This document shows positions 5,256 to 61,135 of a stretch of 64,000 bases of DNA, one piece after another. The notes below the pieces were generated by a model. The model searched no databases. It was not told the DNA's origin and saw only the letters and a list, made by a program, of their open reading frames with translations. The stretch's first letter is position 1, and each line of letters opens with the position of its first letter. The stretch spans positions 219-64,218 of the IMG/VR virus record IMGVR_UViG_3300025138_000037, one strand, 5' to 3'. The DNA comes from a virus (lineage: Duplodnaviria > Caudoviricetes). The translations under genes and the position numbers were made by a program.

Positions 5256-5656
5256 TGAAAAAAGTCGAGGACAAACTAAACGAAATCCTTGATATATCTG
5301 AAACACTAGAGACAGTAAAACCTACACCAGTTATACCTCGTCCTAAAGAAAAAGAAGATATAGATAGTGATTATAAGTATAGCAGAGAAAATCTTTATAG
5401 TCTTGTAGAAAGAGGACAAGACGCCATTGATGGTATTGTTAATCTTGCAAAAGAAACAGACCACCCACGTGCCTATGAAGTTGCAGGTACCTTAATTAAA
5501 AACGTAGGTGATGTGACAGAAAAATTATTGATATTACAAGAGAAGATGAAAAAACTAAATGATGAAGTGGTGAAAGGTCCTAATAAAGTTGAAAATAATT
5601 TGTTTGTAGGTTCTACAGCAGAATTACAGAAACTTATAAAAAAGAAAAATGATTAA
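5255..5656 (+). CDS. gp16: Terminase small subunit gp16
   Basis: DYKYSRENLY, HPRAYEVA, NNLFVGSTAELQK. Confidence 0.92.
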   Translation: MKKVEDKLNEILDISETLETVKPTPVIPRPKEKEDIDSDYKYSRENLYSLVERGQDAIDGIVNLAKETDHPRAYEVAGTLIKNVGDVTEKLLILQEKMKKLNDEVVKGPNKVENNLFVGSTAELQKLIKKKND

Positions 5657-6251
5657 TACTTGGATAAATGATACTCACTTATGGACAACACCTTTATTTA
5701 ACTTTAACTTTCCTGTTGAACATAAATGGGTGCAATACATAAAAGATAAACAAGACCAGTTAAAAGACAATACACAAAATCCAGAAGGTGCATATACAAC
5801 AAGAACTAACTTATATGAACTCAAAGTTTTTGAACCTTTAGTTTCAACATTTAAAGAAATGAGTTATGCTACATTTGGTAAAAATTGTGTAGATGTAAAA
5901 GTAAGTAACATGTGGGCAAACATATTAAAACGTGGTGACTATCATTTGTTACATACACATAACGAACACACTATGAGTGGTGCATACTATTTACGAGTAC
6001 CTGAAAACTCAGGTCAAATATATTTTAGAGACCCAAGACCACAAACAAACTCATGGACAACAAAGTTTATAGACAAAGGTAATATGAGATTTTATAATGT
6101 AGGTGAAGGTGATTTATATTTTTGGCCATCTTTCTTAGACCATGGTACAACACCACATGGTTCTGACGAAGAAAGAATTGTAATATCTTTTGATTTAGAT
6201 TATTCAGGACCTGATTATAAGTTTGGAGATAATGGATACAATGGCGAATAA
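5649..6251 (+). CDS. Putative 2OG-Fe(II) oxygenase (TIGR02466-like) inserted between gp16 and gp17
   Basis: WANILKRGDYHLLHTH, SGAYYL, F.DPRP, WPSFLDH, RIVISF. Confidence 0.85.
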   Translation: MINTWINDTHLWTTPLFNFNFPVEHKWVQYIKDKQDQLKDNTQNPEGAYTTRTNLYELKVFEPLVSTFKEMSYATFGKNCVDVKVSNMWANILKRGDYHLLHTHNEHTMSGAYYLRVPENSGQIYFRDPRPQTNSWTTKFIDKGNMRFYNVGEGDLYFWPSFLDHGTTPHGSDEERIVISFDLDYSGPDYKFGDNGYNGE

Positions 6252-12118: not shown

Positions 12119-12317
12119 TCCTACAAGGGATATGATAGACGCTTTAGCCAATGATGATACTATTGAAGCAGAGAAAAACTTTAAGGGTGCATTGAGTGCT
12201 AAAGTAGGTACAGAGCTAGATGATAAAAGAAAAGATTTAGCAAGTACAATAATGGCAAAACCACCAGAAAGTACAAATGACGATAACGCTGAGCAATCTA
12301 CGGAAATTGACGATTGA
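12099..12317 (+). CDS. Small prohead core protein (gp67-like)
   Basis: Small acidic helical protein directly after the portal gene; RBS AGGAG at 12091. Confidence 0.6.
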   Translation: MMTDKNNPTRDMIDALANDDTIEAEKNFKGALSAKVGTELDDKRKDLASTIMAKPPESTNDDNAEQSTEIDD

Positions 12318-12528
12318 GAGAGACGAACATAAACGTTCTCCAGTCTATAAAAAACAATCACCAAAGGCCAAAAAGGCAATTGATGATGTAATGACTATGT
12401 TGGCAAAAACGCCATCAAAGGTCTTAACTACGTTCCCAAAAATAATTAAGGACGTGGCAAAAAAGTATGGCGTTAAGCCAAAAGATATTGAAACCTATTT
12501 CGCAAAAGAAACAGGTCTAACCATATAA
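12277..12528 (+). CDS. Hypothetical basic protein (possible prohead core/internal protein)
   Basis: ORF in the gp67/gp68 position. Confidence 0.5.
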   Translation: MTITLSNLRKLTIERDEHKRSPVYKKQSPKAKKAIDDVMTMLAKTPSKVLTTFPKIIKDVAKKYGVKPKDIETYFAKETGLTI

Positions 12529-16769: not shown

Positions 16770-17834
16770 ATGTTTAAAAAACTGACTTCATTCCTGATTG
16801 TAGTATCAGGCATGATTTTATTATCTACAACTACACAAGCAAAAGACCCTAAAATTGGTTTCATCTACATTGGTCCTCCAGGCGACCACGGCTGGACTTA
16901 TATGCACGACCAAGGTAGACAAGACATTGAAATTGAATTAGGTTTTGAAACCACATACATTGAAAACGTACCAGAAAACGCTGATGCTACTAGAGCAATA
17001 CAAAAATTAGCAGCTTCTGGACACGATTTAATCTTTACAACATCTTTCAATTACATGGATCAAACTTTAGAAGTGGCAGAACAATACCCAGATATAAAGT
17101 TTGAACATGCAACTGGTTACAAAAGACTAGACAATGTTTCAACATATTCATCAAGGTTCTATGAAGGTAGAACTATTAGTGGACATATTGCCGCTAAAGA
17201 AAGTAAGACAGGCATTATAGGTTATATTGCCAGTTTTCCAATACCTGAAGTTGTAAGAGGTATTAACGCTTTCATGTTGGCTGCACAAAAGGTAAATCCA
17301 GATATTCAAATTAAGATTATATGGGCATACACTTGGTACGACCCGGCAAAAGAAGGTGATAGTGCAAAAACTTTAATCAATCAAGGTGCAGATATTATAG
17401 TACAACATACTGATACATATGCACCATGTAGAGTGGCACAGGAGATGGGTGTGAAAGCATTTGGTCAAGCAAGTGACCAATATAAGTTTTGTCCAGAGGC
17501 ACATCTAACCGCAATCATTGATGAGTGGGGACCCTACTATGTTGCAAGAGCGAAAGCATTAGCAGATGGTACATGGGAATCTACTGATACATGGAAAGGT
17601 TTAGATAGTGGCATGGTACAAATGGCAAAATACACCAATATGCATCCAAATACAAAGTATGAGGCGATTGCCATAGAGAATGCTTTGAGTGAAGGTAAAA
17701 TGCATTCCTTTGAAGGACCTATTTACAATCAGGCAGGCGAACTAATGGTACCAGAAGGTGAAGTTGCACCTGACGGTATGTTACTAGGCATGAACTGGTA
17801 CGTAAAAGGTATAGACGGACAACTACCACAATAA
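16770..17834 (+). CDS. BMP-family ABC transporter substrate-binding protein (purine nucleoside-binding type)
   Basis: Signal peptide; GFIYIGPPGDHGWTYMHDQGR, IFTTSFNY, FEHATGYK, PIPEVVRGINAF, QGADIIVQHTD. Confidence 0.92.
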   Translation: MFKKLTSFLIVVSGMILLSTTTQAKDPKIGFIYIGPPGDHGWTYMHDQGRQDIEIELGFETTYIENVPENADATRAIQKLAASGHDLIFTTSFNYMDQTLEVAEQYPDIKFEHATGYKRLDNVSTYSSRFYEGRTISGHIAAKESKTGIIGYIASFPIPEVVRGINAFMLAAQKVNPDIQIKIIWAYTWYDPAKEGDSAKTLINQGADIIVQHTDTYAPCRVAQEMGVKAFGQASDQYKFCPEAHLTAIIDEWGPYYVARAKALADGTWESTDTWKGLDSGMVQMAKYTNMHPNTKYEAIAIENALSEGKMHSFEGPIYNQAGELMVPEGEVAPDGMLLGMNWYVKGIDGQLPQ

Positions 17835-21773: not shown

Positions 21774-22331
21774 ATGACTGAAACAGTAAAACTAAAAACA
21801 CCTAAGAAAAAGGAACATTATGTTTCCAATAAGGAGTTTTTAGTTGCAATGAAAGAATTTAAAAAGAAGTGTTTAGCTGCAGAGAAAAGAGGAAGAAGGC
21901 AACCACCTATAAGTGATTACATAGGTGAATGTTTTTTAAAGATTGCCAATCATCTATCTTACAGACCAAACTTCATTAACTACACATACAAAGAAGATAT
22001 GATATCTGATGGTATAGAGAATTGCCTACAGTATGTATCAAACTTTGATCCAGAAAAAAGTAACAATCCTTTTGCTTACTTTACACAAATTATATACTAC
22101 GCTTTTATTCGTAGAATACAAAAAGAAAAGAAACAAACAACAATCAAACAGAAACTTATTCTTAAATCAGGACTAGATGAATTAGTTTTACAGGCCGGTG
22201 ATGATGGTGATTATCAAAATCAATATGCGGACTTTCTAAAGAAGAACATGATTGAGACAGAACCAGAGAAACCAAAAGAGAAAAAGGTAAGAAAGAAAGA
22301 ACCTAAGAAATTAGAATACTTTATGCAATGA
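21774..22331 (+). CDS. gp55: Late transcription sigma factor gp55
   Basis: HYVSNKEFL, IANHLSYRPNFINYTY, DGIENCLQY..NFDPEKS.NPFAYFTQI. Confidence 0.96.
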   Translation: MTETVKLKTPKKKEHYVSNKEFLVAMKEFKKKCLAAEKRGRRQPPISDYIGECFLKIANHLSYRPNFINYTYKEDMISDGIENCLQYVSNFDPEKSNNPFAYFTQIIYYAFIRRIQKEKKQTTIKQKLILKSGLDELVLQAGDDGDYQNQYADFLKKNMIETEPEKPKEKKVRKKEPKKLEYFMQ

Positions 22332-23809
22332 CAGAAAAGATTATAATTGTAGGAGGTGGTAGTGCAGGCTGGATGTCAGCGGCAACACTTATCAAAGCCT
22401 TTCCTCACAAAGACATCACCGTAATAGAAAGTCCTAATACACCCACCGTAGGTGTAGGTGAAAGTACCATTGGTAGTATTAATGATTGGTTATCTTTCTT
22501 AGAACTAGAAGATAAGGACTGGATGCCTCATGTAGGTGCTTCCTATAAATTAAGTATTAAGTTTACAGACTTTTATAAAAAAGGTGAAGAATTTCATTAC
22601 CCATTTGGTTTACCTTATGAACCTTATATTTCTAATGATACACGAAACAAATGGTATTTAAAGAAACATTTACAGAATTGTAAAACATCTGACTATGCTG
22701 AATGTATGGCACCACAAATTGCCTTAGCGAATACAAACAAAATGGCAAAATCTTTTGATGGTTTTGATTATCACAAAGACGCTGCTTATCATTTTGACGC
22801 TTTACTCTTTGCAAAATATCTAAAAGAGAATTATTGTTTACCAAGAGGTGTAAAACATATAAAAGAACATATAAACACCGTAGAAACAAATGAACATGGT
22901 ATTATATCATTGAACGATAAACATACTGCCGACCTATACTTAGATTGCACAGGCTTTAAATCTTTGTTAATGAAAGAAGTAAATAGTAAGTTTATTCACA
23001 TGAACCATATTTTACCAAATGATAGTGCATGGTCAACAAAATTAGAATATACAGATAAAGAAAAACAATTAGAACCATATACAAATTGTACCGCTATAGA
23101 AAACGGTTGGGTATGGAATATACCTCAATGGCAAAAGATTGGTACTGGTTATGTTTATTCAAGTAAGTATATTGATGATGACCAAGCGTTAGAAGACTTT
23201 CATAACTATTTGGGAAAACCAAAGAATGTAAATTATAAAAAAACAGGTATGAGAGTAGGTAGACATAAACATATGTGGAAAAAGAATGTATGCTCTATAG
23301 GACTGGCTGCAGGTTTTATTGAACCTTTAGAAAGTACAGGTCTCCTTCAAACACATGTATTTTTATTAAAACTTGTAAAGAATTTAGAACGAGGCAAAGT
23401 ATCACAGTTTGATAAAGATACACACAATTTAGAATGTAATGATATATTTGATAACTTTGTTGCCTTTGTGGCGATGCATTATTCTTTATCACATAGAGAC
23501 GATACACAATATTGGCGTGATGTAAGAGAAAGAAGTATTGCGGAGTTAGAACTAGTGCAAAAAGTAATGAAAGTAAAACACATTGACCATTATTTTACAA
23601 TAGATGGTGGTATGCATTATATTGCCACAGGTATGAATTATGATCCTATCTCTATGACAGATATATTAACAAAACAATATGAACTAGACACAGATATAAT
23701 AGATGAAAAATATGTGGCAACATTTGATACAAATAAGAATAGATGGAAAAATAATGCCAAAAAAGAACTTACATTATATAAATTTTTAAAGGAGAATATA
23801 CATGGGTAA
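22328..23809 (+). CDS. Flavin-dependent (tryptophan-type) halogenase family protein
   Basis: GGGSAGW, GVGEST, K in ASYKLSIKF, WVWNIP (WxWxIP), FIEPLESTG. Confidence 0.9.
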   Translation: MTEKIIIVGGGSAGWMSAATLIKAFPHKDITVIESPNTPTVGVGESTIGSINDWLSFLELEDKDWMPHVGASYKLSIKFTDFYKKGEEFHYPFGLPYEPYISNDTRNKWYLKKHLQNCKTSDYAECMAPQIALANTNKMAKSFDGFDYHKDAAYHFDALLFAKYLKENYCLPRGVKHIKEHINTVETNEHGIISLNDKHTADLYLDCTGFKSLLMKEVNSKFIHMNHILPNDSAWSTKLEYTDKEKQLEPYTNCTAIENGWVWNIPQWQKIGTGYVYSSKYIDDDQALEDFHNYLGKPKNVNYKKTGMRVGRHKHMWKKNVCSIGLAAGFIEPLESTGLLQTHVFLLKLVKNLERGKVSQFDKDTHNLECNDIFDNFVAFVAMHYSLSHRDDTQYWRDVRERSIAELELVQKVMKVKHIDHYFTIDGGMHYIATGMNYDPISMTDILTKQYELDTDIIDEKYVATFDTNKNRWKNNAKKELTLYKFLKENIHG

Positions 23810-24848
23810 AATTGCCTTGATTAACGACACCCATTTAGGTTGTAGAAATGATAATCCTAATTACCATGAGTATATCTACAAGTTTTGGGAAGAACAGTTT
23901 TTTCCTTATATAGAACAAAACAATATAGATACAATCATACATTTAGGTGACGTGTTAGATAGACGTAAGTATGTGAATTTTAAAACACTACAAGATTTCA
24001 ATGAAAGAATAGTCAAAAGATTAAACGCCTATAATGTACATATCATTGTAGGTAACCATGACACCTATTATAAGAACACAAACAATGTCAATGCACCACA
24101 AGAATTGTTAAGTCAATACCATGTGTATAGTCAACCAACAAAGGTGACAATAGATGATATGAACATGTTAATGATACCTTGGGTAACACCTGAGAACTAT
24201 GATAAAACAAAGATGATGTTAGAACAAGAAAGTGCTGACATGGTACTAGGTCATTTAGAAATCAAAGGTTTTGAAATGCACAATGGTCATGTGAGTGATA
24301 CAGGTTTAGAACAATCATTATTCAGTAGATATGAAAAAGTATTATCTGGTCACTTTCACAAAAAGAGTGACAACGGCCATATATACTATTTGGGTAGTCA
24401 ATATGAAATGACTTGGTCAGATTATAATTGTCCTAAAAACTTTCATGTACTGGACACAGAAACAAGAGAAATAGAAGCCATTCGTAACCCTTTGACTATT
24501 CATTCTAAAATATATTACAATGATGAAACAACAGACTATGCAAATTTTGATTATGATACATGCAACCATAAATATATTAAACTCATTGTAGAAAAGAAAA
24601 CAGATTACTTTATGTTTGATAAGTTTGTTGATAACATATATCAAAACGCCAAACCTTATGACTTAAAGATAATAGAAGACTATTCAGACTTAGACGCTAC
24701 GAGTGTGGCAGACGATATAGTGGAACAAAGTGAAGATACCCCTACTTTACTGGACACCTATATAGAACAAACAGATACTACCTTAGATAAAGGTAGATTA
24801 AAAAACTTGATGAAAAGTTTATACACGGAGGCATTTGATTATGAGTAA
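23802..24848 (+). CDS. gp47: Recombination endonuclease subunit gp47 (Mre11/SbcD-like)
   Basis: DTHLG, HLGDVLDRRK, GNHD, SGHFH. Confidence 0.95.
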   Translation: MGKIALINDTHLGCRNDNPNYHEYIYKFWEEQFFPYIEQNNIDTIIHLGDVLDRRKYVNFKTLQDFNERIVKRLNAYNVHIIVGNHDTYYKNTNNVNAPQELLSQYHVYSQPTKVTIDDMNMLMIPWVTPENYDKTKMMLEQESADMVLGHLEIKGFEMHNGHVSDTGLEQSLFSRYEKVLSGHFHKKSDNGHIYYLGSQYEMTWSDYNCPKNFHVLDTETREIEAIRNPLTIHSKIYYNDETTDYANFDYDTCNHKYIKLIVEKKTDYFMFDKFVDNIYQNAKPYDLKIIEDYSDLDATSVADDIVEQSEDTPTLLDTYIEQTDTTLDKGRLKNLMKSLYTEAFDYE

Positions 24849-25530
24849 TGATTACCCAGACCACTTGTATTATAACAATACATACTTTTTTGGTCCTTAT
24901 TTACATCATGGTAGAGTTGACCCTAAATTTATTAAAGACTTATTAGCCATAGGTGAGAAATCACAGGATATGGTTGATATGAAAAAGAACTTAGCAGGTG
25001 ATTTAAAAGGTGAGTGGAAGTTTAGTGAAGAAGACCAAAGATGGTTTTGTAAACACATGAGATTAAACTTTGAACATTATGTGAAACAACGTGCCAGTTG
25101 GCATGCTGATTCAGAATTAGAAAAAAGAGGATATATTATAGATAACGTATGGATTAATTATCAACATCCAGGTGATTATCAACCAGAGCATATACATGCA
25201 GGTGATTTTAGTTGGGTTATTTATTTACAGAATCCACCAGGACTAGAAGAAGAAAGAGATAACCACGATACACGAGGTCCTGCACCAGGTACAATTACCT
25301 TCTCTTATGGTGAGGGTGTTGGTATGTCAATTGAAAACTATGCTGTCATCAATCAAAACTTTGCCAATAAAGTAGGTGACTTCTTTATATTTCCGGCACA
25401 ATTAAGGCATTCTGTACCACAATTTAAGAGTGAGGGTGTGAGAATATCTATAAGTGGGAATGGTAGTTTCCAAGAAAAACATAGTCCATATAATGATTAC
25501 TTTTATGGAGAACAAAGAATAAACAATTAA
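24841..25530 (+). CDS. Putative 2OG-Fe(II) oxygenase inserted between gp47 and gp46
   Basis: WINYQHPGDYQPEHIH, FSWVIYL, FIFPAQLRHSV, RISISGN. Confidence 0.83.
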   Translation: MSNDYPDHLYYNNTYFFGPYLHHGRVDPKFIKDLLAIGEKSQDMVDMKKNLAGDLKGEWKFSEEDQRWFCKHMRLNFEHYVKQRASWHADSELEKRGYIIDNVWINYQHPGDYQPEHIHAGDFSWVIYLQNPPGLEEERDNHDTRGPAPGTITFSYGEGVGMSIENYAVINQNFANKVGDFFIFPAQLRHSVPQFKSEGVRISISGNGSFQEKHSPYNDYFYGEQRINN

Positions 25531-28969: not shown

Positions 28970-30226
28970 ATGGAAAAGAAAATAGATCCGCTACTAGAAG
29001 AGCAATGGGAGGTTTTTCAAAAAGAAAACCCAAGTGCGACATATCGTCACGTTGATGAGAATGAACTGGTAGATAGACTAACAAAAGAATTAACTTATGC
29101 TTCTAATATGTCAGTAGAAGAATACACACTATATCAAAAATGGTGTGAAGTAAAAAACAAATATCCTGCACAAAAAGTAAATACTTTATTTGGTGAAGAA
29201 AGTCAATTAGTTGACCAGTCAAAAGATAAGTTATTAGTACATGTGAAAAACAATATATGGTCACCTAAAGACCCTATGGACTTTGAAAAGTTAGAACCAG
29301 AGTTAATCTATACAAAAGACATACCCAATGGGTCACAATTGTGGAATGCAATTCGTACATTTGCTTCTACAATGAAAAACAATAACAACATAGGTCGTAA
29401 CCTTAACTTTATTGTAAGAGATAAACCAACAAAGAAATACTTAGGTGTTATTTGTATCTCATCAGACTTTTTAGATTTAACACCAAGAGACAATTACATA
29501 GGTTGGGATAGAGAACGTAAAACGAAGAAGATGATTAATCATACGGCAATAGGTAGTACGATTGTGCCACTACAACCACTAGGGTTTAATTATACAGGTG
29601 GTAAGTTATTGGCGTTATTATGTTTATCTGATAAAGTACAAGAAATATGGAAAAGAGAATATGGTGACACGATGGTAGGTGTAACAACAACAAGTCTATA
29701 TGGTAGTTTTAGTCAGTATCAAAATCTTAAATACTGGAAGAAAAGAGGTCATAGTTCAGGTAGTGTATCTTATGAAGCAACAAAACCTACAATTTCTATG
29801 ATACGAGATTGGTTAAAAGAAAATCATACAAGAAAATACTTTGAATGGTATGGTGCAACAAAACCTACAGGCCAACCTTATAAGAGAGACCACAGAAATA
29901 GGTCACATACATTTGCCTACAGTAAGTTAGGCATACCAAGAGAGATTACAAAGTCTGCTCATAGTCGTGGTATCTATTTTAGTACACTATATGATAACAC
30001 TTGCGAATTTTTAAAAGAAGAAATAACGGAAGATAAGTTAAAAAAATCATTTGATAGTAGTATTGAAGGACTTGTAAATGTATGGAAAAACAAGTATGCT
30101 AGTAAGCGTATTAAATCATTGATTAACCAGTCTAGGACGAACATGGAGACACTTTATTATGATGACTTGATACATCTAACTTGGGAAGAAACAAAGAATA
30201 AGTATCTAAAACAGGTAGGAAGATGA
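28970..30226 (+). CDS. DUF4338 (DruA-like) protein, paralog A
   Basis: GRNLNFIVRD..T.KYLGVI.ISSD..DL.PRD.YIGW, IVPLQPLGFNYTGGKLLALL, TTTSLYG..SQY. Confidence 0.8.
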   Translation: MEKKIDPLLEEQWEVFQKENPSATYRHVDENELVDRLTKELTYASNMSVEEYTLYQKWCEVKNKYPAQKVNTLFGEESQLVDQSKDKLLVHVKNNIWSPKDPMDFEKLEPELIYTKDIPNGSQLWNAIRTFASTMKNNNNIGRNLNFIVRDKPTKKYLGVICISSDFLDLTPRDNYIGWDRERKTKKMINHTAIGSTIVPLQPLGFNYTGGKLLALLCLSDKVQEIWKREYGDTMVGVTTTSLYGSFSQYQNLKYWKKRGHSSGSVSYEATKPTISMIRDWLKENHTRKYFEWYGATKPTGQPYKRDHRNRSHTFAYSKLGIPREITKSAHSRGIYFSTLYDNTCEFLKEEITEDKLKKSFDSSIEGLVNVWKNKYASKRIKSLINQSRTNMETLYYDDLIHLTWEETKNKYLKQVGR

Positions 30227-32804: not shown

Positions 32805-33965
32805 ATGAAATTAAATGATAAACAAAAACAATTTGTAGAGACTGCTTACAAAGAACTTGGTACTGATACAGTAACAAGAAAGCAAGTCCAAGAAATTGAG
32901 ACTAAATTTAATCTAACTGGTAACAGTTGGTTAGTTAATTCAGGAGACTACAAAGTGGGTCGTGGTGTATATAAATTACCTGTTAACGGTATGGTTAATC
33001 CATCTAAGAATGTTAAACAGAAATTATCACCTGTACAACCACAAGAAAAGGTTACACTTAAAACTACTGAACGTGTTGCTGATAATCTAGTGCCTTCTAA
33101 AGAGGCAACTTTTGTATCTTTTGGTAACTACAAAGATATTAAGAATATTGTTAAATCTGGTATCTTTTATCCTACTTTCATTACTGGTTTATCTGGTAAT
33201 GGTAAGACACTTAACATAATTCAAAGTTGTGCTGAGTTAAAACGTGAATTAATTAGAGTTAACATAACTGTTGAAACGGACGAAGATGATTTACTTGGTG
33301 GTTTCAGATTAGTTGACGGTGCTACAGTATGGCATGACGGTCCTGTTGTTGACGCTATGAAACGTGGCGCTGTTCTTTTACTTGATGAGATTGACTTAGC
33401 AAGTAATAAGATTATGTGTTTACAACCTATCTTAGAAGGTAACGGTGTGTTCCTTAAAAAGATTGGTAAATTTGTAGAACCACAATCTGGTTTTAATGTA
33501 ATCGCTACTGCCAATACAAAAGGTAAAGGTAGTGATGACGGAAGATTTATTGGTACTAACATACTCAATGAAGCATTCCTTGAAAGATTTCCTGTTACTT
33601 TTGAGCAACAGTATCCTCCTATCAAGGTAGAACAAAAAATACTTGATAACGTTATGGATGCCTATAACTTAAAAGATGACAAGTTTACAGAAAACCTAGT
33701 TAAATGGGCTGATGTAATTCGTAAGACTTTCTATGATGGTGGTGTTGATGAGATTATCGCTACTCGTAGATTAGTACATATCATTAATGCTTATGCTATC
33801 TTTAAGAACAAACTAAAATCTGTTCAAGTGTGTGTAAACAGATTTGATGATGATACTAAAAACAGTTTCCTTGATTTGTATTCCAAAGTTGACGCAGGCG
33901 TTAATATGGAAGACCTATCAGGAAATGTCAATGATGATGAGACAGTAGAGGATAGTAATATCTAA
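32805..33965 (+). CDS. MoxR/CobS-like AAA+ ATPase
   Basis: GLSGNGKT, DLLGG, LLLDEID, ATANTKG, NEAFLERF. Confidence 0.92.
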   Translation: MKLNDKQKQFVETAYKELGTDTVTRKQVQEIETKFNLTGNSWLVNSGDYKVGRGVYKLPVNGMVNPSKNVKQKLSPVQPQEKVTLKTTERVADNLVPSKEATFVSFGNYKDIKNIVKSGIFYPTFITGLSGNGKTLNIIQSCAELKRELIRVNITVETDEDDLLGGFRLVDGATVWHDGPVVDAMKRGAVLLLDEIDLASNKIMCLQPILEGNGVFLKKIGKFVEPQSGFNVIATANTKGKGSDDGRFIGTNILNEAFLERFPVTFEQQYPPIKVEQKILDNVMDAYNLKDDKFTENLVKWADVIRKTFYDGGVDEIIATRRLVHIINAYAIFKNKLKSVQVCVNRFDDDTKNSFLDLYSKVDAGVNMEDLSGNVNDDETVEDSNI

Positions 33966-33996
33966 TATGAAATTCATTCATAATGTAGACCTCGTA

Positions 33997-34023
33997 GGTG
34001 GCGGAACTCATAATCCCGCCACC
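33997..34023 (+). other. Stem-loop with tRNA-Met-like anticodon loop CTCATAA
   Basis: GGTGGCGGAA-CTCATAA-TCCCGCCACC; 9 of 10 positions pair. Confidence 0.55.
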
Positions 34024-34039
34024 GCTAAATCTACTTTGA

Positions 34040-34113
34040 GCGGGTTAAGCATAAAAGTAATGTGTGTTAATTCCATTAACAAGAACTTCGGGCAGTACGA
34101 AGGATCCGCTCCA
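34040..34113 (+). tRNA. tRNA-Gly(TCC), non-canonical D and T loops, encoded CCA
   Basis: Acceptor GCGGGTT/GATCCGC, U73, CCA; D stem GCAT/ATGT; anticodon stem TGTTA/TAACA with loop AT-TCC-AT; T stem CTTCG/CGAAG with loop GGCAGTA; 74 nt. Confidence 0.85.
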
Positions 34114-34129
34114 ACTAACTAATAAAGAT

Positions 34130-34336
34130 ATGACAATAACAGTAATAGTAAAAAATAACAACGTAGAAAAAGCTATTAGAACCTTAAAGAAAAAGGTCCT
34201 AAAAGAAGGTCTCTTAAAAGAAATAAAACAAAGGCAATATTACGAAAAGCCTACGTTAAAGAGACAAAGAAGACATAAAGAAAATCTAAAACGTGTTGCT
34301 AAATTAAATAAGCAACGAGAACGTGAAGGATTTTAA
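34130..34336 (+). CDS. rpsU: Ribosomal protein bS21
   Basis: V.VKNNNVEKAIRTLKKKVLKEGLLKEIKQRQYYEKPT.KR; the start is ATG 34130 because the track's longer ORF runs through the tRNA. Confidence 0.92.
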   Translation: MTITVIVKNNNVEKAIRTLKKKVLKEGLLKEIKQRQYYEKPTLKRQRRHKENLKRVAKLNKQREREGF

Positions 34337-34392
34337 AAGAATTTCTGTTGATGACACGGCGGAATAAACACCATAAACTAAAGGAGTATATT

Positions 34393-34644
34393 ATGGCAAG
34401 AACAAGAATAGCAAACAGCACAAAATTTCTTAATGCAATGTTAAGAGGTGCTAGTGTAACCTGGACGGAAGCACAAAAAAAATTTAGTTTGAAATCACCA
34501 AGAAGCGTGGTTAACAAATTAAGAGAAGATGGACATTGTGTGTACATCAATAAATCAGCAAAAGGTACTAGTTACAGAATTGGTACACCTTCAAAAGCGT
34601 TAGTGGCTGCAGGTTTTGCTATGTTAGAAGGCGCTTCTGCATAA
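34393..34644 (+). CDS. Small winged-HTH-like DNA/RNA-binding protein
   Basis: RBS AAGGAG; G.SVTWTEAQKKF.LKSPRSVVNKLREDGHCVYIN....YRIG. Confidence 0.65.
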   Translation: MARTRIANSTKFLNAMLRGASVTWTEAQKKFSLKSPRSVVNKLREDGHCVYINKSAKGTSYRIGTPSKALVAAGFAMLEGASA

Positions 34645-35249: not shown

Positions 35250-35270
35250 GGGTGGGCGTTATGCCCACCC
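35250..35270 (+). terminator. Hairpin after hsp20
   Basis: GGGTGGGC-GTTAT-GCCCACCC with no U-tract. Confidence 0.5.
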
Positions 35271-35281
35271 ACCACTATATT

Positions 35282-35836
35282 ATGAGCATACTTTTTGAAA
35301 CACATATACTACACAAACACTTAGACCTTAACCTAGAGGTCATTAAACATCATTGTCGTGGCATAAGAATACATGGCAAAGGTAGAGACGTTTCTAACAT
35401 AGGTGGTTGGCAAAGTGAAGACTTATACGGCGACCATCCTGAACTTTACGATTTATTTGAATCCATAGATGAATATGGTAATGAATATTCTCAACATGTA
35501 AATAGAGACCACGTTAAACTTGATAACGTGTGGGTAAACTTTAATGGTTACAAAGATTACAATAGACCACATGTACATAGTGGTGCATATGTGAGTGGTG
35601 TGTATTATGTACAAACACCTGAAGATTGTGGCAACTTATGTTTTGAACACCCTTCGCCACTACACAATACTGAATGGGACCATGTACCAAATGTAATGGG
35701 ATATGTTCCACAAGAGAATGATTTGTTTTTATTTCCTAATTGGCTAAGTCATTATGTATTACCAAATCTAAACAAAAAAGAGGAAAGAATTTCAATCTCA
35801 TTTAATCTAAGGCTTGACAAATCAACTGAATTATGA
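35282..35836 (+). CDS. Putative 2OG-Fe(II) oxygenase (TIGR02466-like)
   Basis: SNIGGWQS, WVNFN...YNRPHVH, SGVYYV, FPNWLSHYV.PN, RISISFN. Confidence 0.87.
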   Translation: MSILFETHILHKHLDLNLEVIKHHCRGIRIHGKGRDVSNIGGWQSEDLYGDHPELYDLFESIDEYGNEYSQHVNRDHVKLDNVWVNFNGYKDYNRPHVHSGAYVSGVYYVQTPEDCGNLCFEHPSPLHNTEWDHVPNVMGYVPQENDLFLFPNWLSHYVLPNLNKKEERISISFNLRLDKSTEL

Positions 35837-41374: not shown

Positions 41375-41847
41375 TATCTAATCCAAGTTTAAGAAAAGCA
41401 AGAACTAACGGCATGTCATATGAAAAGAAATTTGAATTGTTTTGTAATTCAAAAGGTATTGGTAGTGTATATCACACTAGATGGTCAAGGAGTGGTACAG
41501 GTTCTTTTGATGATGATAACAAGATATTAGTAAAAGACTTTCCATATGAAAGTATCTACCCAGGTCGTATATGTAAAACAGAATTTGTGTTAATACTCAA
41601 CGATAGAAGAATAAGAATAGAGTTTAAATCTCAGGATATGCCAGGTTCAACTGATGAAAAAATACCATATCTTTTAGAAAATGTAAGACATAGTTTTCCT
41701 GAAGATGAAGTAATACTTGGTATTATAGGACAAGGATGGCGACCAGGTATAAAAGAATATGTAAATAAACAAAAATTTAAGAATAAAAAAGTTTTAATTT
41801 TTTATGATTATGATAAACTAGAGGAATATGTGAGTACAATTGTATGA
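41371..41847 (+). CDS. PD-(D/E)XK nuclease-like protein
   Basis: G..YE, KTEFVL...IRIEFKSQ..PGSTDEKIPY; TTG start overlapping the gp43 stop. Confidence 0.7.
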   Translation: MISNPSLRKARTNGMSYEKKFELFCNSKGIGSVYHTRWSRSGTGSFDDDNKILVKDFPYESIYPGRICKTEFVLILNDRRIRIEFKSQDMPGSTDEKIPYLLENVRHSFPEDEVILGIIGQGWRPGIKEYVNKQKFKNKKVLIFYDYDKLEEYVSTIV

Positions 41848-42974
41848 TATTAAATGACCAAGACAGTACCTGGGCAATGAATTACTTTATTGAATACTTT
41901 GGCCAATTTGAAAGAATTGACCAGTATCTTAAAGAACAAAAACTAGAGCAAGTTAAATCTTTTCCATTTCAGTTACCTGGTATGGCAGATGAAGATGATT
42001 TCTTTTCTACATTTGATATACACCCACATGATATGAAATTTAGTGTGACGATACCTAATGGTCAGATATTTGACCGTATGTTAAACAAGACATCTAGTCA
42101 TACAAACATGTCATCTATACCTGGTAAGTCAATACGTTTATTAGTAACAGAAACAACGACCAATACTATTGTAGGTTTTATAAGACTAGGTAGTCCAGTT
42201 ATTAACAGTAAGCCACGAAATGATTTTTTAGGCAGACCACTGGCAACAACAGACTTAAAAGAAATGGGTCGTTTCAATGCGAGTGCCATTATGGGTTTTG
42301 TTATAGTACCTACACAACCTTTTGGTTATAACTATCTAGGTGGCAAACTATTAGCCGCCATATGTTGTAGTCATCATGTCCGTAATTTACTAAATAAAAA
42401 GTACGATACAAATATATGTTTGTTTGAAACAACTAGTTTATATGGTAGTAGTAAGTCCTCAAGTCAATATGATGGCATGAAACCGTATCTGAGATTTAAA
42501 GGATTAACAGATAGTAATTTTTTACCACTATTACATGGTGACGCCTTTAAACAAATGAACAAATGGTTTACAGAAAGAAATGAAAACACACCTTTAGTTG
42601 ACCCAGAAGCAAGTAGTAGAAAACTTAAAACTCAACAAAAGATGGTATCTGTTATAAAGGAATCATTAAAGAAACACAATTCAAACTTATATGAAAAGTT
42701 TGGTAAGTTTGTGAATAAGACTAGAGACTTAACAGAAAGAAAAAGATTTTACATATCTGATTATGGTTATGATAATGTACCACAATATATAAAAGGTGAA
42801 ACAGATACACTAAATAAAAGTGTACATCACTATGACAAGTTTGCCTTAGAAAATACAATTAAGTGGTGGCAAAAAATTGCAGGTAAAAGATATGATAAAT
42901 TAAAGCAAGGTGCAACATTGAGAAATGAGTTAGAGATATGGCACCAAGATGCTGAAATACAAATCATAAGATAA
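41844..42974 (+). CDS. DUF4338 (DruA-like) protein, paralog B
   Basis: PGKSIRLLV.E..T..IVGFIRLGSP.IN.KPRN, IVPTQPFGYNYLGGKLLAAI, ETTSLYG...SQYDG. Confidence 0.8.
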   Translation: MILNDQDSTWAMNYFIEYFGQFERIDQYLKEQKLEQVKSFPFQLPGMADEDDFFSTFDIHPHDMKFSVTIPNGQIFDRMLNKTSSHTNMSSIPGKSIRLLVTETTTNTIVGFIRLGSPVINSKPRNDFLGRPLATTDLKEMGRFNASAIMGFVIVPTQPFGYNYLGGKLLAAICCSHHVRNLLNKKYDTNICLFETTSLYGSSKSSSQYDGMKPYLRFKGLTDSNFLPLLHGDAFKQMNKWFTERNENTPLVDPEASSRKLKTQQKMVSVIKESLKKHNSNLYEKFGKFVNKTRDLTERKRFYISDYGYDNVPQYIKGETDTLNKSVHHYDKFALENTIKWWQKIAGKRYDKLKQGATLRNELEIWHQDAEIQIIR

Positions 42975-60610: not shown

Positions 60611-61135
60611 ATGAAATTGCAACAAATATTTCCACGAATTATTGGCGAGGCTCACTTTAACTTTGACCTATTAGACGATATAAACAAAATACGAGATAAT
60701 CCCTCTGGTACACCTAAACGTTGGGTATCAAACAAAACATACAGTACATTTGGTAAAGACTTATGGGATTATCCTAGTTTTCACCCTTTCTTAGAATGGC
60801 AAGATAGTCAAGTCACCACCTATTGTAAAGACCAAAATATCAAGTTTGAACAATTCAATTGTCAATCTTGGTTTAACATCTATACTAAAGGTGACTTCCA
60901 AGAAACACATAATCACAATATATCTGGACAACATCTAAGCACAATTTATATGTGTAAAGGACCTACAGGTAGCGCATATACATACTTTAGTGATTTTCAA
61001 ATACAAGACCAGTATCGCTTTGAATTTGAAGAAGGTACATTACTGATATTTCCATCACACATGTTGCATGGTGTATCTCAACACGAATTAGATGATGAAA
61101 GGATTACTATTGCTAGTAATTATAAATTAACTTGA
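60611..61135 (+). CDS. Putative 2OG-Fe(II) oxygenase
   Basis: SWFNIYTKGDFQETHNH, LSTIY, EGTLLIFPSHMLHGV, RITIASN. Confidence 0.85.
   Translation: MKLQQIFPRIIGEAHFNFDLLDDINKIRDNPSGTPKRWVSNKTYSTFGKDLWDYPSFHPFLEWQDSQVTTYCKDQNIKFEQFNCQSWFNIYTKGDFQETHNHNISGQHLSTIYMCKGPTGSAYTYFSDFQIQDQYRFEFEEGTLLIFPSHMLHGVSQHELDDERITIASNYKLT

Follow-up and report, generated by a model that had tools for sequence, protein, structure and literature searches.

The window, a 64,000-nt stretch of DNA from a marine SAR11-type phage, carries a real, conserved glycine tRNA gene (Table 1). The gene is one of a widespread and hitherto overlooked type of phage tRNA with an alternative elbow base pair. With a probability of roughly one half, this gene encodes a working glycine tRNA that the phage uses in ordinary decoding. 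The original prediction, made from the letters of the window, had described a tRNA that could be charged with glycine but was apparently not built for translation. The latter part of that view is not supported, given the covariation within the elbow, the presence of the same elbow in a tRNA-Asp, and the finding that a tRNA of this class is the sole tRNA-Gly of a complete phage.

Table 1. Features of the window at and around the tRNA-Gly gene
Feature	Position	Strand	Basis or remark
DruA-like (PF14236) protein, predicted GNAT fold	28970..30226	+	structure model; possible user of Gly-tRNA (speculative)
AAA+ ATPase gene, CobS-like, 5' of the tRNA gene	32805..33965	+	Pfam AAA_5, E = 4.9e-17
51-codon ORF overlapping the tRNA	33967..34122	+	judged spurious
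Intergenic 22-mer CATTCATAATGTAGACCTCGTA, conserved, 5' of the tRNA gene	33975..33996	+	identical in window and HTVC008M
Hairpin GGUGGCGG-loop-CCGCCACC	33997..34023	+	sequence varies between lineages, pairing kept
tRNA-Gly(UCC) gene with encoded CCA, A18/G55 "remodelled elbow" class	34040..34113	+	sequence, MFE fold, covariation
D loop AAAAGUA	34053..34059	+	no GG; keeps A14, A21 and G19; A replaces G18
Anticodon loop AUUCCAU	34070..34076	+	anticodon UCC 34072-34074; conserved U33, C35, C36, A37
T arm	34086..34102	+	stem CUUCG/CGAAG: C49-G65, U50-A64, U51-A63
T loop GGCAGUA	34091..34097	+	G54 G55 C56 A57 G58 U59 A60
Ribosomal protein S21 gene	34130..34336	+	Pfam PF01165, E = 4.2e-16; start 16 nt after CCA
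Second DruA-like paralogue	41844..42974	+	Pfam E = 1.2e-8; 25% identity to the first

Structure and conservation of the tRNA gene

The sequence items on which the original prediction was built (the 74-nt length, the CCA, A8, the loops and the base pairs) are all present at the coordinates given. In standard numbering, the 7-bp acceptor stem consists of G1-C72, C2-G71, G3-C70, G4-C69, G5-U68, U6-A67 and U7-G66; its 5' strand is followed by A8 A9, a D stem GCAU/AUGU, an anticodon stem UGUUA/UAACA and a 4-nt variable loop, and the 3' end is U73 with the encoded CCA (34111-34113). Stems of 7, 4, 5 and 5 bp, a 7-nt anticodon loop, U33 and a purine at position 37 make up a regular cloverleaf. The canonical elbow set G18, G19, U54, U55 and C56 is incomplete: the window copy has A18, G54 and G55, and only G19 and C56 are kept. 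The bacterial glycine identity set, given in PMC9976931 as U73, G1-C72, C2-G71, C35, C36 and (G10-Y25):G45, is complete in the window copy, as had been claimed for the GlyRS identity elements, and U73 occurs in 56 of 56 class members.

The minimum free energy fold is the cloverleaf (-18.6 kcal/mol, z = -2.19), which was equalled by 7 of 200 shuffles; taken alone, this is modest evidence for a tRNA. It is the comparison with relatives that shows the cloverleaf of the window to be more than chance. Ten distinct orthologues were located by means of an upstream 18-mer, independently of the tRNA sequence itself. In these, 97.1% of stem cells are paired (36-49% in slid controls), and 12 of the 21 stem pairs have changed on both sides, a level reached by none of 500 shuffles. 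Among 21 distinct family members the paired fraction is 95.5%, compared to 36-53% in slid controls. The original prediction had read the intact stems as an argument against random decay and had looked to related phages for covariation; compensatory changes are indeed found there, and they indicate a gene under selection. All copies are exactly 74 nt long. Within the 10 orthologues, U33, C35, C36 and A37 do not vary; at position 34, nine have A and one has U.

These data also bear on the proposal that the element is not an RNA gene at all, being instead either a small protein gene (the overlapping ORF of Table 1) or a decaying tRNA pseudogene. The proposal is highly improbable, even though the window copy is missed by tRNA finders. 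The ORF shows no 3-periodicity (14, 12 and 13 variable columns by codon position), the synonymous fraction of its frame (0.05) is below that of the other two, it has no ATG in HTVC008M or L024 and no Pfam hit, and the paired substitutions in the stems scramble its peptide. The frame is open in just 27 of the 56 class members, and on this count, together with the missing ATGs and the lack of periodicity, a protein-coding ORF is rejected. Decay is incompatible with a length of 74 nt in every copy and with invariant loops. In the S21-adjacent clade the frame is nonetheless open in all 10 orthologues, where the four spacer lengths (49, 52, 61 and 64 nt) are equal modulo 3, and both observations count in favour of the proposal.

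The failure of standard detectors had been predicted, and both ARAGORN and the Rfam tRNA model miss the window copy. ARAGORN reports no tRNA within the 64-kb window. With the Rfam pass mark of at least 29 bits for RF00005, the window copy is unmatched; no tRNA match was obtained at E <= 10 in an 801-nt segment, and RF00005 has no match anywhere in the 64,218-bp record. The covariance model built here gives the same copy 83.3 bits. Most of its relatives are easier to recognize: among 20 distinct class members, 17 exceed the Rfam gathering score (36.6-52 bits) and 5 are called by ARAGORN. The HTVC008M orthologue scores 49.5 bits on the Rfam tRNA model and is called as tRNA-Gly(ACC) by ARAGORN. 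The window copy is the most derived member of the class, with A8, A32/U38 and AU-rich stems, and this is why the tRNA finders miss it.

The A18/G55 elbow

Few tertiary contacts of tRNA are as conserved as that between G18 and Psi55. Over 93 distinct sequences, positions 18 and 55 are A and G in 56, G and U in 36, and G and C in one, with no mixed combinations. The missing GG and T-Psi-C motifs, which the original prediction had set beside their loss in staphylococcal tRNA-Gly, do not amount to a loss, since A18 is always found with G55 (56 sequences) and G18 with U55 or C55 (37 sequences). Such perfect covariation argues that the elbow contact has been remodelled and kept in another form. Judging from these alignments, the G18-Psi55 contact has probably been replaced by A18/G55, with G19 and C56 retained. 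In the T loop, G55, C56, U59 and A60 are invariant in 21 of 21 distinct class sequences, which were retrieved by a search pattern from which the T loop had been excluded. No relevant description of an A18/G55 tRNA variant was found in the open-access literature searched.

A close comparison is with the "U55" cousins, tRNA-Gly genes of canonical type in marine T4-like phages, an example of which is the first gene of a tandem in contig L144. The cousins and the class have in common the acceptor stem GCGGR...YCCGC-U-CCA, a D stem GUAU/UUAC or GCAU/AUGC, a 7-nt D loop, a 4-nt variable loop, a length of 71+3 nt and the anticodons UCC and GCC, and both were retrieved with one backbone pattern. The cousins differ in having G18-G19, U54-U55-C56 and the T loop TTCGATT. 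Positions 54 and 58 are variable in the A18/G55 class, unlike the U54 of the cousins, and the 51:63 pair is mostly G-C or C-G in the cousins (30 of 37) but A-U or U-A in the class (52 of 56).

Class anticodons are UCC, ACC and, rarely, GCC, with ACC in 22 of the 56 distinct sequences. The anticodon loop is ordinary in most members (UUACCAA or UUUCCAA). Position 32 is U in 17 of 21 members and most have U32/A38, so that the A32/U38 of the window copy is unusual within the class.

The elbow is found as well in phage tRNA-Asp(GUC) of 6 contigs, whose 5 distinct sequences each have G55-C56, and is thus not specific for glycine. That the altered elbow is conserved and common to two identities points to a property of the RNA body as a whole rather than to glycine chemistry. 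One such property would be escape: the tRNA would be translational, with elbow and loops remodelled to avoid a host tRNA-cleaving nuclease, phage-induced turnover, or dependence on the host modifications of U54 and U55. The original prediction had mentioned a nuclease-resistant or decoy tRNA in this connection. Phage tRNAs can evade tRNA-targeting defences and, judging from the bases, G54 and G55 would not be substrates for the formation of m5U54 or Psi55. Against this, the anticodon loop, which is the usual nuclease target, is ordinary in most class members, and no nuclease or defence system aimed at tRNA-Gly or at the tRNA elbow was identified in the analyses made. Escape as the main explanation is accordingly judged unlikely.

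The S21 locus

The tRNA gene lies between the CobS-like gene, whose HTVC008M counterpart is annotated CobS / porphyrin biosynthesis, and the S21 gene. The 18-mer core of the intergenic 22-mer is found exactly in 23 viral contigs and differs in the variant L103; phage Mosig has a diverged form of the 22-mer before S21, with no tRNA there. The arms of the neighbouring hairpin are TCCGTGG/CCACGGA in HTVC008M, GAGAGCGG/CCGCTCTC in L014 and GTGGAGGG/CCCTCCAC in Mosig. A promoter scan of 33700-34450 gave only one plus-strand hit near the element (TAGACC-17-CATAAT, 33986-34014), which is given no weight because it uses the non-conserved hairpin loop, and the plus strand of this interval has no predicted terminator-like site.

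The proximity to S21 raises the question of a cis-acting element, in which the shape of the tRNA would bring in RNase P and 3' processing and thereby release or stabilise the S21 mRNA, with charging being irrelevant. The short interval between the CCA end and the S21 start belongs to an arrangement kept in 10 of 10 distinct orthologues of the clade, and tRNA and S21 are bridged by RNA-library contigs. There is also a parallel in the Methylophilales (OM43) phage Melnitz, a related T4-like marine myophage in which a tRNA-Arg(UCU) lies 13 nt before the S21 gene, rpsU (Buchholz et al., PMC9004378). In both phages the tRNA is on the same strand as S21 and ends 13-16 nt before its start. The Melnitz tRNA is fully canonical (D-loop GG, T loop TTCGAGT), has another identity and is not a homologous copy. 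However, the class occurs without S21 in many contexts, including Mosig (between hsp20 and gp45), G001, G002 and others, and the element is absent from each of 61 S21 loci that are more distant. On these two results an S21 leader is rejected as the main function. In addition, a processing signal would not need the conserved anticodon bases C35/C36, U73 and CCA. The cis-acting proposal is thus very unlikely. In the phage collection, tblastn with S21 recovered only HTVC008M at the default threshold, and Mosig only at E <= 5.

Probable decoding and possible glycine donation

If the element serves in ordinary decoding, as is favoured here, it would be transcribed from the cobS-tRNA-S21 stretch and processed at both ends, and would then be glycylated by the host GlyRS. 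On the ribosome, the UCC copy would read GGA and GGG, and the ACC copies of sister lineages would read GGU, the phage's main Gly codon. The remodelled elbow may make the tRNA independent of the usual U54/U55 modifications, and the T stem would make it a weaker EF-Tu ligand than a normal tRNA-Gly.

Ordinary decoding is favoured by G001, a complete phage of 176 kb whose 29 Rfam tRNA hits are read as spanning all 20 amino acids, and whose sole tRNA-Gly belongs to the A18/G55 class. The sole tRNA-Gly of G002 (230 kb) likewise belongs to the class, in a genome whose tRNAs for A-ending codons are Arg UCU, Ile UAU, Leu UAA and Thr UGU. In three contigs two genes of the G55 class, one with UCC and one with GCC, lie 2.8 kb apart, a pairing that resembles a decoding set. 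The locus is also covered, without mismatches, by contigs from RNA libraries of several studies, which bridge cobS, tRNA and S21 (33919-34166; 34082-34232), although such contigs may include DNA carry-over and the mature ends cannot be read from them. Two of the RNA contigs, X19 and X20, both end at 34093 (C56); this stop is at most a weak hint of blocked reverse transcription or of an edge of coverage, and uncovered parts of the locus carry no weight as evidence.

Codon usage gives a mixed picture. Among the 1,208 Gly codons of the window genes, GGT accounts for 67.5%, GGA for 14.2% and GGG for 2.6%, and ACC is the Watson-Crick partner of GGT. The window's own UCC anticodon reads the minor codons GGA and GGG, which counts against decoding. 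In HTVC008M this tRNA is the only tRNA, and codon supply by itself hardly accounts for a lone tRNA-Gly. The ACC anticodon is itself unusual, since natural A34 tRNAs are otherwise confined to tRNA-Arg according to PMC10853795. That paper provides a parallel in the single tRNA-Gly(UCC) of Mycoplasma mycoides and its A34 and G34 mutants, which likewise involve one tRNA-Gly with U34 or A34. The M. mycoides tRNA is capable of superwobbling, which according to that paper requires C32. The phage class differs in mostly having U32/A38, with A32/U38 in the window copy, and four-way codon reading is therefore not expected.

The alternative that deserves most attention is a dedicated or dual-use glycyl donor, where the host GlyRS would charge the tRNA and the Gly-tRNA would be handed to a phage transferase; a poor EF-Tu ligand would keep its glycine off the ribosome. 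This inference of the original prediction is possible, if doubtful, and has real evidence on its side. It derives from a resemblance, noted in the original prediction, to the tRNA-Gly species NP1-3 of Staphylococcus, which are glycine donors for FmhB/FemA/FemB and have TGC or TGT instead of TTC (Rietmeyer et al., PMC7826273). G55, and hence the absence of Psi55, is common to these tRNAs and to 56 of 56 class members. A/U pairs at 50:64 and 51:63 and the anticodon UCC are further points of resemblance; chargeability by a normal GlyRS is presumably also common to both.

Affinity for EF-Tu was calculated from the first three T-stem pairs with the additive model of Schrader & Uhlenbeck (Table 2 of PMC3239215). 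Weak binding is predicted by this model, with -9.1 kcal/mol for the window copy (pairs 49-65, 50-64 and 51-63). The calculated class mean is -9.06 (n=55), or -9.36 without G50:U64 stems, and 50 of 55 members have a value of -9.6 or a weaker one. Calculated values for comparison are a mean of -10.8 for bacterial tRNA-Gly(UCC), -9.5 for the staphylococcal non-proteogenic type and a mean of -9.99 for the canonical phage cousins. The calculated binding of both NP1-3 and the phage class is thus about 1.3-1.7 kcal/mol weaker than that of normal tRNA-Gly. The G55-elbow tRNA-Asp has G51:C63 in 5 of 5 sequences and calculated energies of -10.3 to -11.0, so by these predictions the weak T stem is confined, among G55-elbow tRNAs, to those for Gly. 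The low calculated affinity and its restriction to Gly count for a glycyl donor and against ordinary decoding.

The resemblance to the staphylococcal tRNAs is one of features, and kinship is not implied. The non-proteogenic lineage is described in PMC7826273 as restricted to staphylococci, and NP1-3 lack G19, with dihydrouridine placed at position 19 by the same paper; in the phage class one G able to pair with C56 is retained. NP1-3 also have a known Fem-family partner; none was found in the phage genomes scanned, and the phage elbow is also that of a tRNA-Asp, which is another point against a donor. A split between proteogenic and non-proteogenic isoacceptors might be one reading of contig L144/G005, where a canonical tRNA-Gly(UCC) and a G55-class tRNA-Gly(UCC) lie 8 nt apart, with the same anticodon on different bodies. 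This combination was seen in only 1 of 5 phage records, although the host has a normal tRNA-Gly anyway. The UCC and GCC pairs described above argue in the other direction.

Neither the Fem family (FemAB, PF02388) nor Acetyltransf_1 has a match in five class-carrying genomes. In the window, no Fem-family or classical GNAT (Acetyltransf_1) protein was found among 73 ORFs scanned with Pfam, scans in which 21 of 70 ORFs in one set and 2 of 5 in the other had no hit at all. The sole candidate user is instead the DruA-like protein, which might carry out a Mom-like transfer of glycine from Gly-tRNA to DNA adenine. The Mom protein of phage Mu is a GNAT, with R111 and S124 as catalytic residues, whose transfer of glycine from Gly-tRNA-Gly to N6 of DNA adenine is established in PMC13219725. 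A GNAT fold is predicted for the DruA-like protein by an alignment-based model (single-sequence prediction reached a pLDDT of only 34.8), and the top structural match of that model is Mu Mom.

Genomic association is consistent with such a link. PF14236 occurs in 15 of 49 mostly short G55-class contigs versus 7 of 50 longer canonical contigs, as raw counts uncorrected for kinship and length. A PF14236 gene lies within ~1 kb of a G55-class tRNA-Gly in four contigs, and in G002 and G003 the only tRNA near the DruA-like gene is tRNA-Gly, with other tRNAs elsewhere. Several results point the other way. In G001 the class provides the sole tRNA-Gly, yet a PF14236 gene is absent; a canonical tRNA-Gly (L183) likewise adjoins a DruA-like gene; and many of the tRNA-DruA-like distances (5.6-7.4 kb) fit conserved T4-type synteny. 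At the sequence level, a 34-sequence profile for the DruA-like protein matches neither Mom nor any chain of the PDB at E <= 10, and phmmer of the DruA-like protein against the PDB gave chance-level matches only (best E = 0.026, a mitoribosomal protein). A protein atlas returned only DruA-family viral clusters with no structure, and the Druantia preprint 10.1101/2025.09.15.676423 is silent on DruA's fold, all text matches to "DruA" being to "Druantia". Finally, Mom takes all host tRNA-Gly isoacceptors (PMC13219725), and so no dedicated tRNA is needed. The full proposal, that in marine T4-like phages (pelagimyophages and cyanophage-like relatives) an EF-Tu-poor tRNA-Gly feeds a Mom-like PF14236 enzyme a few kb away that glycylates or carbamoylmethylates phage DNA or another target, is for now an improbable conjecture. 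If true, it would provide a phage counterpart of the staphylococcal proteogenic/non-proteogenic tRNA-Gly split and the first indication of what DruA does in the Druantia defence system.

Whichever role applies, the annotation of abundant ocean phages has overlooked or mis-called a conserved tRNA gene: Table 1 of PMC7029224 lists HTVC008M with 0 tRNAs, and in Mosig the gene has been entered as a hypothetical protein. The A18/G55 swap in 56 distinct tRNA-Gly and 5 distinct tRNA-Asp genes is a natural test of the need for the elbow contact and for the modifications of U54 and U55. The Gly members often bear the otherwise almost unused ACC anticodon, and combine the elbow with T stems that are predicted to be as EF-Tu-weak as those of the only known non-proteogenic tRNA-Gly. 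These features may reflect tuning for translation in SAR11-type hosts or, alternatively, the diversion of glycine to a phage enzyme.

A tRNA-Gly gene missed by standard detectors

The window is a fragment of a T4-like pelagimyophage: Pfam identifies T4-type portal, capsid, sheath, clamp, polymerase, RegA and UvsX/W/Y genes, and identity to Pelagibacter phage HTVC008M at the tRNA locus is about 72%. The original prediction described a complete cloverleaf at this locus, and every feature that it stated is present. The 7-bp acceptor stem begins with G1-C72, C2-G71 and G3-C70; position 8 is A; the D stem is GCAU/AUGU with loop AAAAGUA; the anticodon stem is UGUUA/UAACA with loop AUUCCAU, giving anticodon UCC; the variable loop has 4 nt; the T stem is CUUCG/CGAAG with loop GGCAGUA; and U73 is followed by an encoded CCA. 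The cloverleaf is also the minimum-energy fold, by a modest margin over shuffles (z = -2.19). The low detector score that had been expected was found: ARAGORN reports 0 tRNAs across the window, and Rfam gives nothing for this tRNA at gathering score, no tRNA match in an 801-nt slice at E <= 10, and no match of its tRNA model to the whole 64,218-bp viral record.

Features of the window and RNA contigs (X-numbers, RNA libraries) that match it
Feature	Position	Strand	Remark
tRNA-Gly(UCC)-like gene	34040-34113	+	74-nt cloverleaf read from sequence
CobS-like AAA+ gene	32805-33965		upstream neighbour of tRNA
ORF	33967-34122		51 codons; overlaps tRNA
22-mer and hairpin	33975-34023		intergenic
Ribosomal protein S21 gene	34130-34336		downstream neighbour of tRNA; Pfam E = 4e-16
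DruA-like protein (PF14236)	28970-30226		Pfam E = 3e-21
Second DruA-like paralogue (PF14236)	41844-42974		Pfam E = 1e-8
X15 contig	33919-34166		cobS end into S21
X16 contig	34082-34232		tRNA 3' half into S21
X19 contig	33883-34093
X20 contig	33895-34093
2OG-Fe(II) oxygenase-family ORFs	384-2692, 5649-6251, 24835-25530, 35252-35836, 60611-61135		eight separate ORFs in the 64 kb
Tryptophan-halogenase-like gene	22328-23809
PnrA/Bmp-like substrate-binding protein	16770-17834

It is very improbable that the locus is a protein gene or a decaying remnant and not an RNA gene. In HTVC008M an unannotated 150-nt gap at the equivalent locus contains a tRNA-Gly(ACC) by ARAGORN (Rfam tRNA 49.5 bits versus a gathering score of 29), and the anticodon-stem and T-stem sequences of the two phages are entirely unlike, yet paired in both. 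Orthologues (23 viral contigs found through a conserved upstream 18-mer, plus S21-based loci) fall into 10 distinct versions, and the length is exactly 74 nt in every one. Against the cloverleaf, 97.1% of their cells are paired, versus 36-49% with the 3' partners slid; both sides have changed at 12 of 21 pairs, and the observed pairing values were reached in 0 of 500 shuffles. This covariation in related phages bears out the earlier argument against random decay, and the locus is a real tRNA-Gly gene under selection.

The overlapping 51-codon ORF was rejected as a protein gene. Its variable columns number 14, 12 and 13 at codon positions 1, 2 and 3, its synonymous fraction (0.05) is the lowest of the frames, ATG is absent in two lineages, it has no Pfam match, and, among the matches listed, only 27 of 56 wider-class members keep the frame open. 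In the 10 S21-adjacent variants this frame runs without a stop across motif, hairpin and tRNA every time, yet with no codon-position signal; their spacer lengths (49, 52, 61 and 64 nt) are equal modulo 3. Elsewhere, the 64 kb contain eight separate 2OG-Fe(II) oxygenase-family ORFs.

A phage tRNA subclass with an A18/G55 elbow

A family pattern made from the tRNA 5' half alone (acceptor 5' strand, D arm and anticodon) matched 44 viral loci with 20 distinct sequences, 10 of them away from S21. The copy in Pelagibacter phage Mosig lies between hsp20 and the gp45 clamp and is annotated as hypothetical protein Mosig_000011. The Rfam tRNA threshold is passed by 17 of the 20 (36.6-52 bits), with the window type, its sister L105 and L127 below it, and ARAGORN recognizes 5. 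Pairing in 21 distinct class sequences is 95.5%, versus 36-53% in controls, and G55, C56, U59, A60 and U73 are invariant in all 21, though outside the search pattern. Loops of this non-canonical form identify a subclass of phage tRNAs (the G55 class) that is widespread and has an alternative elbow; the window copy is its most derived member.

A relaxed pattern (any D-loop interior, any base 34) matched at least 123 loci, including canonical cousins with U55 on the same backbone. Among the matches listed, 93 distinct sequences in fixed register were compared at positions 18 and 55: 56 have A18 with G55, 36 have G18 with U55, one has G18 with C55, and none is mixed. This perfect covariation argues that an A18/G55 combination replaces the usual G18-Psi55 contact. 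Judged from these alignments, the elbow is remodelled and not lost, with G19 and C56 retained; in the G55 class positions 54/58 are G/G, A/U, U/U, U/A or C/A. The same elbow occurs in tRNA-Asp(GUC). The complete phage G001 has one such gene, and an A18 D-arm pattern matched tRNA-Asp(GUC) in 6 contigs (5 distinct sequences), all with G55-C56. No description of an A18/G55 tRNA elbow was found in the literature searched. Evasion of nucleases, or of dependence on modification, could be a reason for replacing a contact that involves Psi55, but an unlikely one.

The manA RNA motif (RF01745, 161-187 bits) lies 4-50 nt from a G55-class tRNA-Gly at 4 of the 20 distinct loci (L100, L101, L109 and L139); it precedes the tRNA at two of these and follows it at the other two. 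Near-consensus sigma-70-type promoters (TTGACA/TTGACT, 17 nt, TATATT) in Mosig (L143:1165-1200; TTGACA-17-TATATT), L111 and L127 end 8 nt before G1, so that the transcript could start at or beside the mature 5' end, and little or no leader might then be left for RNase P.

Expression and the S21 junction

Between 37 and 47% of sampled words from 33900-34400 are present in six RNA libraries, and contigs from four of these have 0 mismatches to the window at the locus. They are compatible with cobS-tRNA-S21 co-transcription, although such contigs show neither ends nor strand and could include DNA carry-over. The X19 and X20 contigs, from two studies, both stop at C56 of the T loop, and X15 and X16 read through; the shared stop may reflect either the edge of coverage or blocked reverse transcription. 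A shared transcript would allow the tRNA to act as a processing element for S21; with half of the distinct class sequences lying elsewhere, this role is improbable.

In two lineages, OM43 phage Melnitz (L098:15299-15376) and the window (34040-34129), only 13-16 nt separate the end of a tRNA from the S21 start. The two tRNAs are non-homologous (canonical Arg UCU and G55-class Gly, respectively), which suggests that the junction itself may matter. The intergenic stretch from the cobS-like gene to the tRNA/S21 contains a 22-mer, CATTCATAATGTAGACCTCGTA, and then a GC-rich hairpin whose arms vary by lineage with pairing always kept (also L001:1885-1930 and L097:1425-1470). In Mosig a diverged 22-mer, hairpin and T-run directly precede S21 without a tRNA, annotated as hypothetical protein Mosig_00017. 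The element could be a terminator, a promoter or 5' leader, or an S21 regulatory element.

Ordinary decoding or glycyl donation

Ordinary decoding is the leading reading for the window tRNA and its class, with a probability of roughly one half. Phage G001 (176 kb, terminal repeats, rated 100% complete) has 29 Rfam tRNA matches; its tRNAs cover all 20 amino acids by ARAGORN plus manual reading of six it missed, a tally that leaves out one Rfam match (12220-12340), and its sole tRNA-Gly is of the G55 class. The sole tRNA-Gly of G002 (230 kb), beside tRNAs Arg(UCU), Ile(UAU), Leu(UAA) and Thr(UGU), is a G55-class UCC gene. Both were counted for decoding, as were three contigs with G55-class UCC and GCC genes 2.8 kb apart, which are probably one lineage and were therefore taken as one observation.

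Gly codons in window genes (n=1,208) are GGT 67.5%, GGC 15.6%, GGA 14.2% and GGG 2.6%. Anticodon ACC, the Watson-Crick partner of GGT, occurs in 9 of the 10 S21-adjacent types and, among the matches listed, 22 of 56 class members; the UCC of the window tRNA fits minor codons. PMC10853795 describes natural A34 as essentially unknown outside tRNA-Arg and four-way codon reading as requiring C32, whereas the phage class has U32 in 17 of 21.

G001 also has a tRNA-like gene (G001:C1:7586-7657, in L287; 34.4 bits with Rfam, missed by ARAGORN) with anticodon loop CUUCAAU, whose anticodon UCA would read the UGA stop codon. A 109-nt Rfam tRNA match (G001:C1:161920-162028, in L291; 57 bits), which contains an insertion past the anticodon region, looks like an intron-containing phage tRNA.

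A dedicated glycyl-donor role, as originally proposed, or a dual one, is a tentative alternative. According to Rietmeyer et al. (PMC7826273), staphylococcal non-proteogenic tRNA-Gly has TGC/TGT replacing TTC in its T loop, which places G at position 55, the pairs A49-U65, U50-A64 and A51-U63, and poor EF-Tu binding. Calculated from per-pair values (Schrader & Uhlenbeck Table 2, PMC3239215), EF-Tu binding is -9.1 kcal/mol for the window copy and, among the matches listed, averages -9.06 for 55 G55-class members (-9.36 without G50:U64 stems, flagged there as non-additive) and -9.99 for 36 U55 cousins (Mann-Whitney p = 3e-7, which ignores kinship and is not a true probability). Published values are -10.8 (mean) for bacterial tRNA-Gly(UCC) and -9.5 for the staphylococcal type. 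Among the same matches, binding is -9.6 or weaker for 50 of 55 G55-class bodies versus 11 of 36 cousins, and 51:63 is A-U/U-A in 52 of 56 class members and G-C/C-G in 30 of 37 cousins. The tRNA-Asp with the G55 elbow keeps a strong stem (G51:C63 in 5/5; calculated -10.3 to -11.0), arguing that the weak stem belongs to the Gly members and not to the elbow. A donor role is also favoured by G005 (L144), in which a canonical tRNA-Gly(UCC) is followed 8 nt on by a G55-class tRNA-Gly(UCC), and by HTVC008M, whose sole tRNA is a G55-class tRNA-Gly.

A Pfam scan of 73 window ORFs matched none of them to a Fem, L/F-transferase or classical GNAT family (21/70 and 2/5 ORFs in two batches lacked a match, the spurious tRNA-overlapping ORF among them), and FemAB and Acetyltransf_1 are absent from five genomes carrying the class. 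The first DruA-like protein in the table is a possible partner enzyme. Its model (34-sequence alignment) is confident (pLDDT 87.2, pTM 0.83) and predicts a GNAT fold with confidence: the top PDB structural matches are all GNATs, with phage Mu Mom the best, and among viral models the first match with a name is again Mom (rank 9, E = 2e-3). A sequence profile matched no PDB chain at E <= 10. According to PMC13219725, Mom moves glycine from Gly-tRNA-Gly onto DNA adenine and accepts every host tRNA-Gly isoacceptor. No assigned function for DruA of the Druantia defence system was found in the literature searched.

PF14236 occurs in 15 of 49 G55-class records, mostly <10 kb, versus 7 of 50 canonical ones, much longer on average; these counts ignore kinship and cover 50 of 84 non-S21 G55-class loci (113 G55-class in all) and 50 of 54 U55-class loci. 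By contig coordinates, the gene lies about 1 kb or less from the tRNA in G019, G021, G028 and G039, and 3-10 kb away in the others that carry it. However, G001 has no PF14236 gene, a canonical tRNA-Gly (L183/G073) likewise adjoins one, and many of the distances match conserved T4-type gene order.

Four traits of the class are apparently undescribed, as far as the literature searched shows: covariation between positions 18 and 55, T stems whose weakness is specific to the Gly members, common occurrence of anticodon ACC, and escape from standard annotation. All are directly testable.
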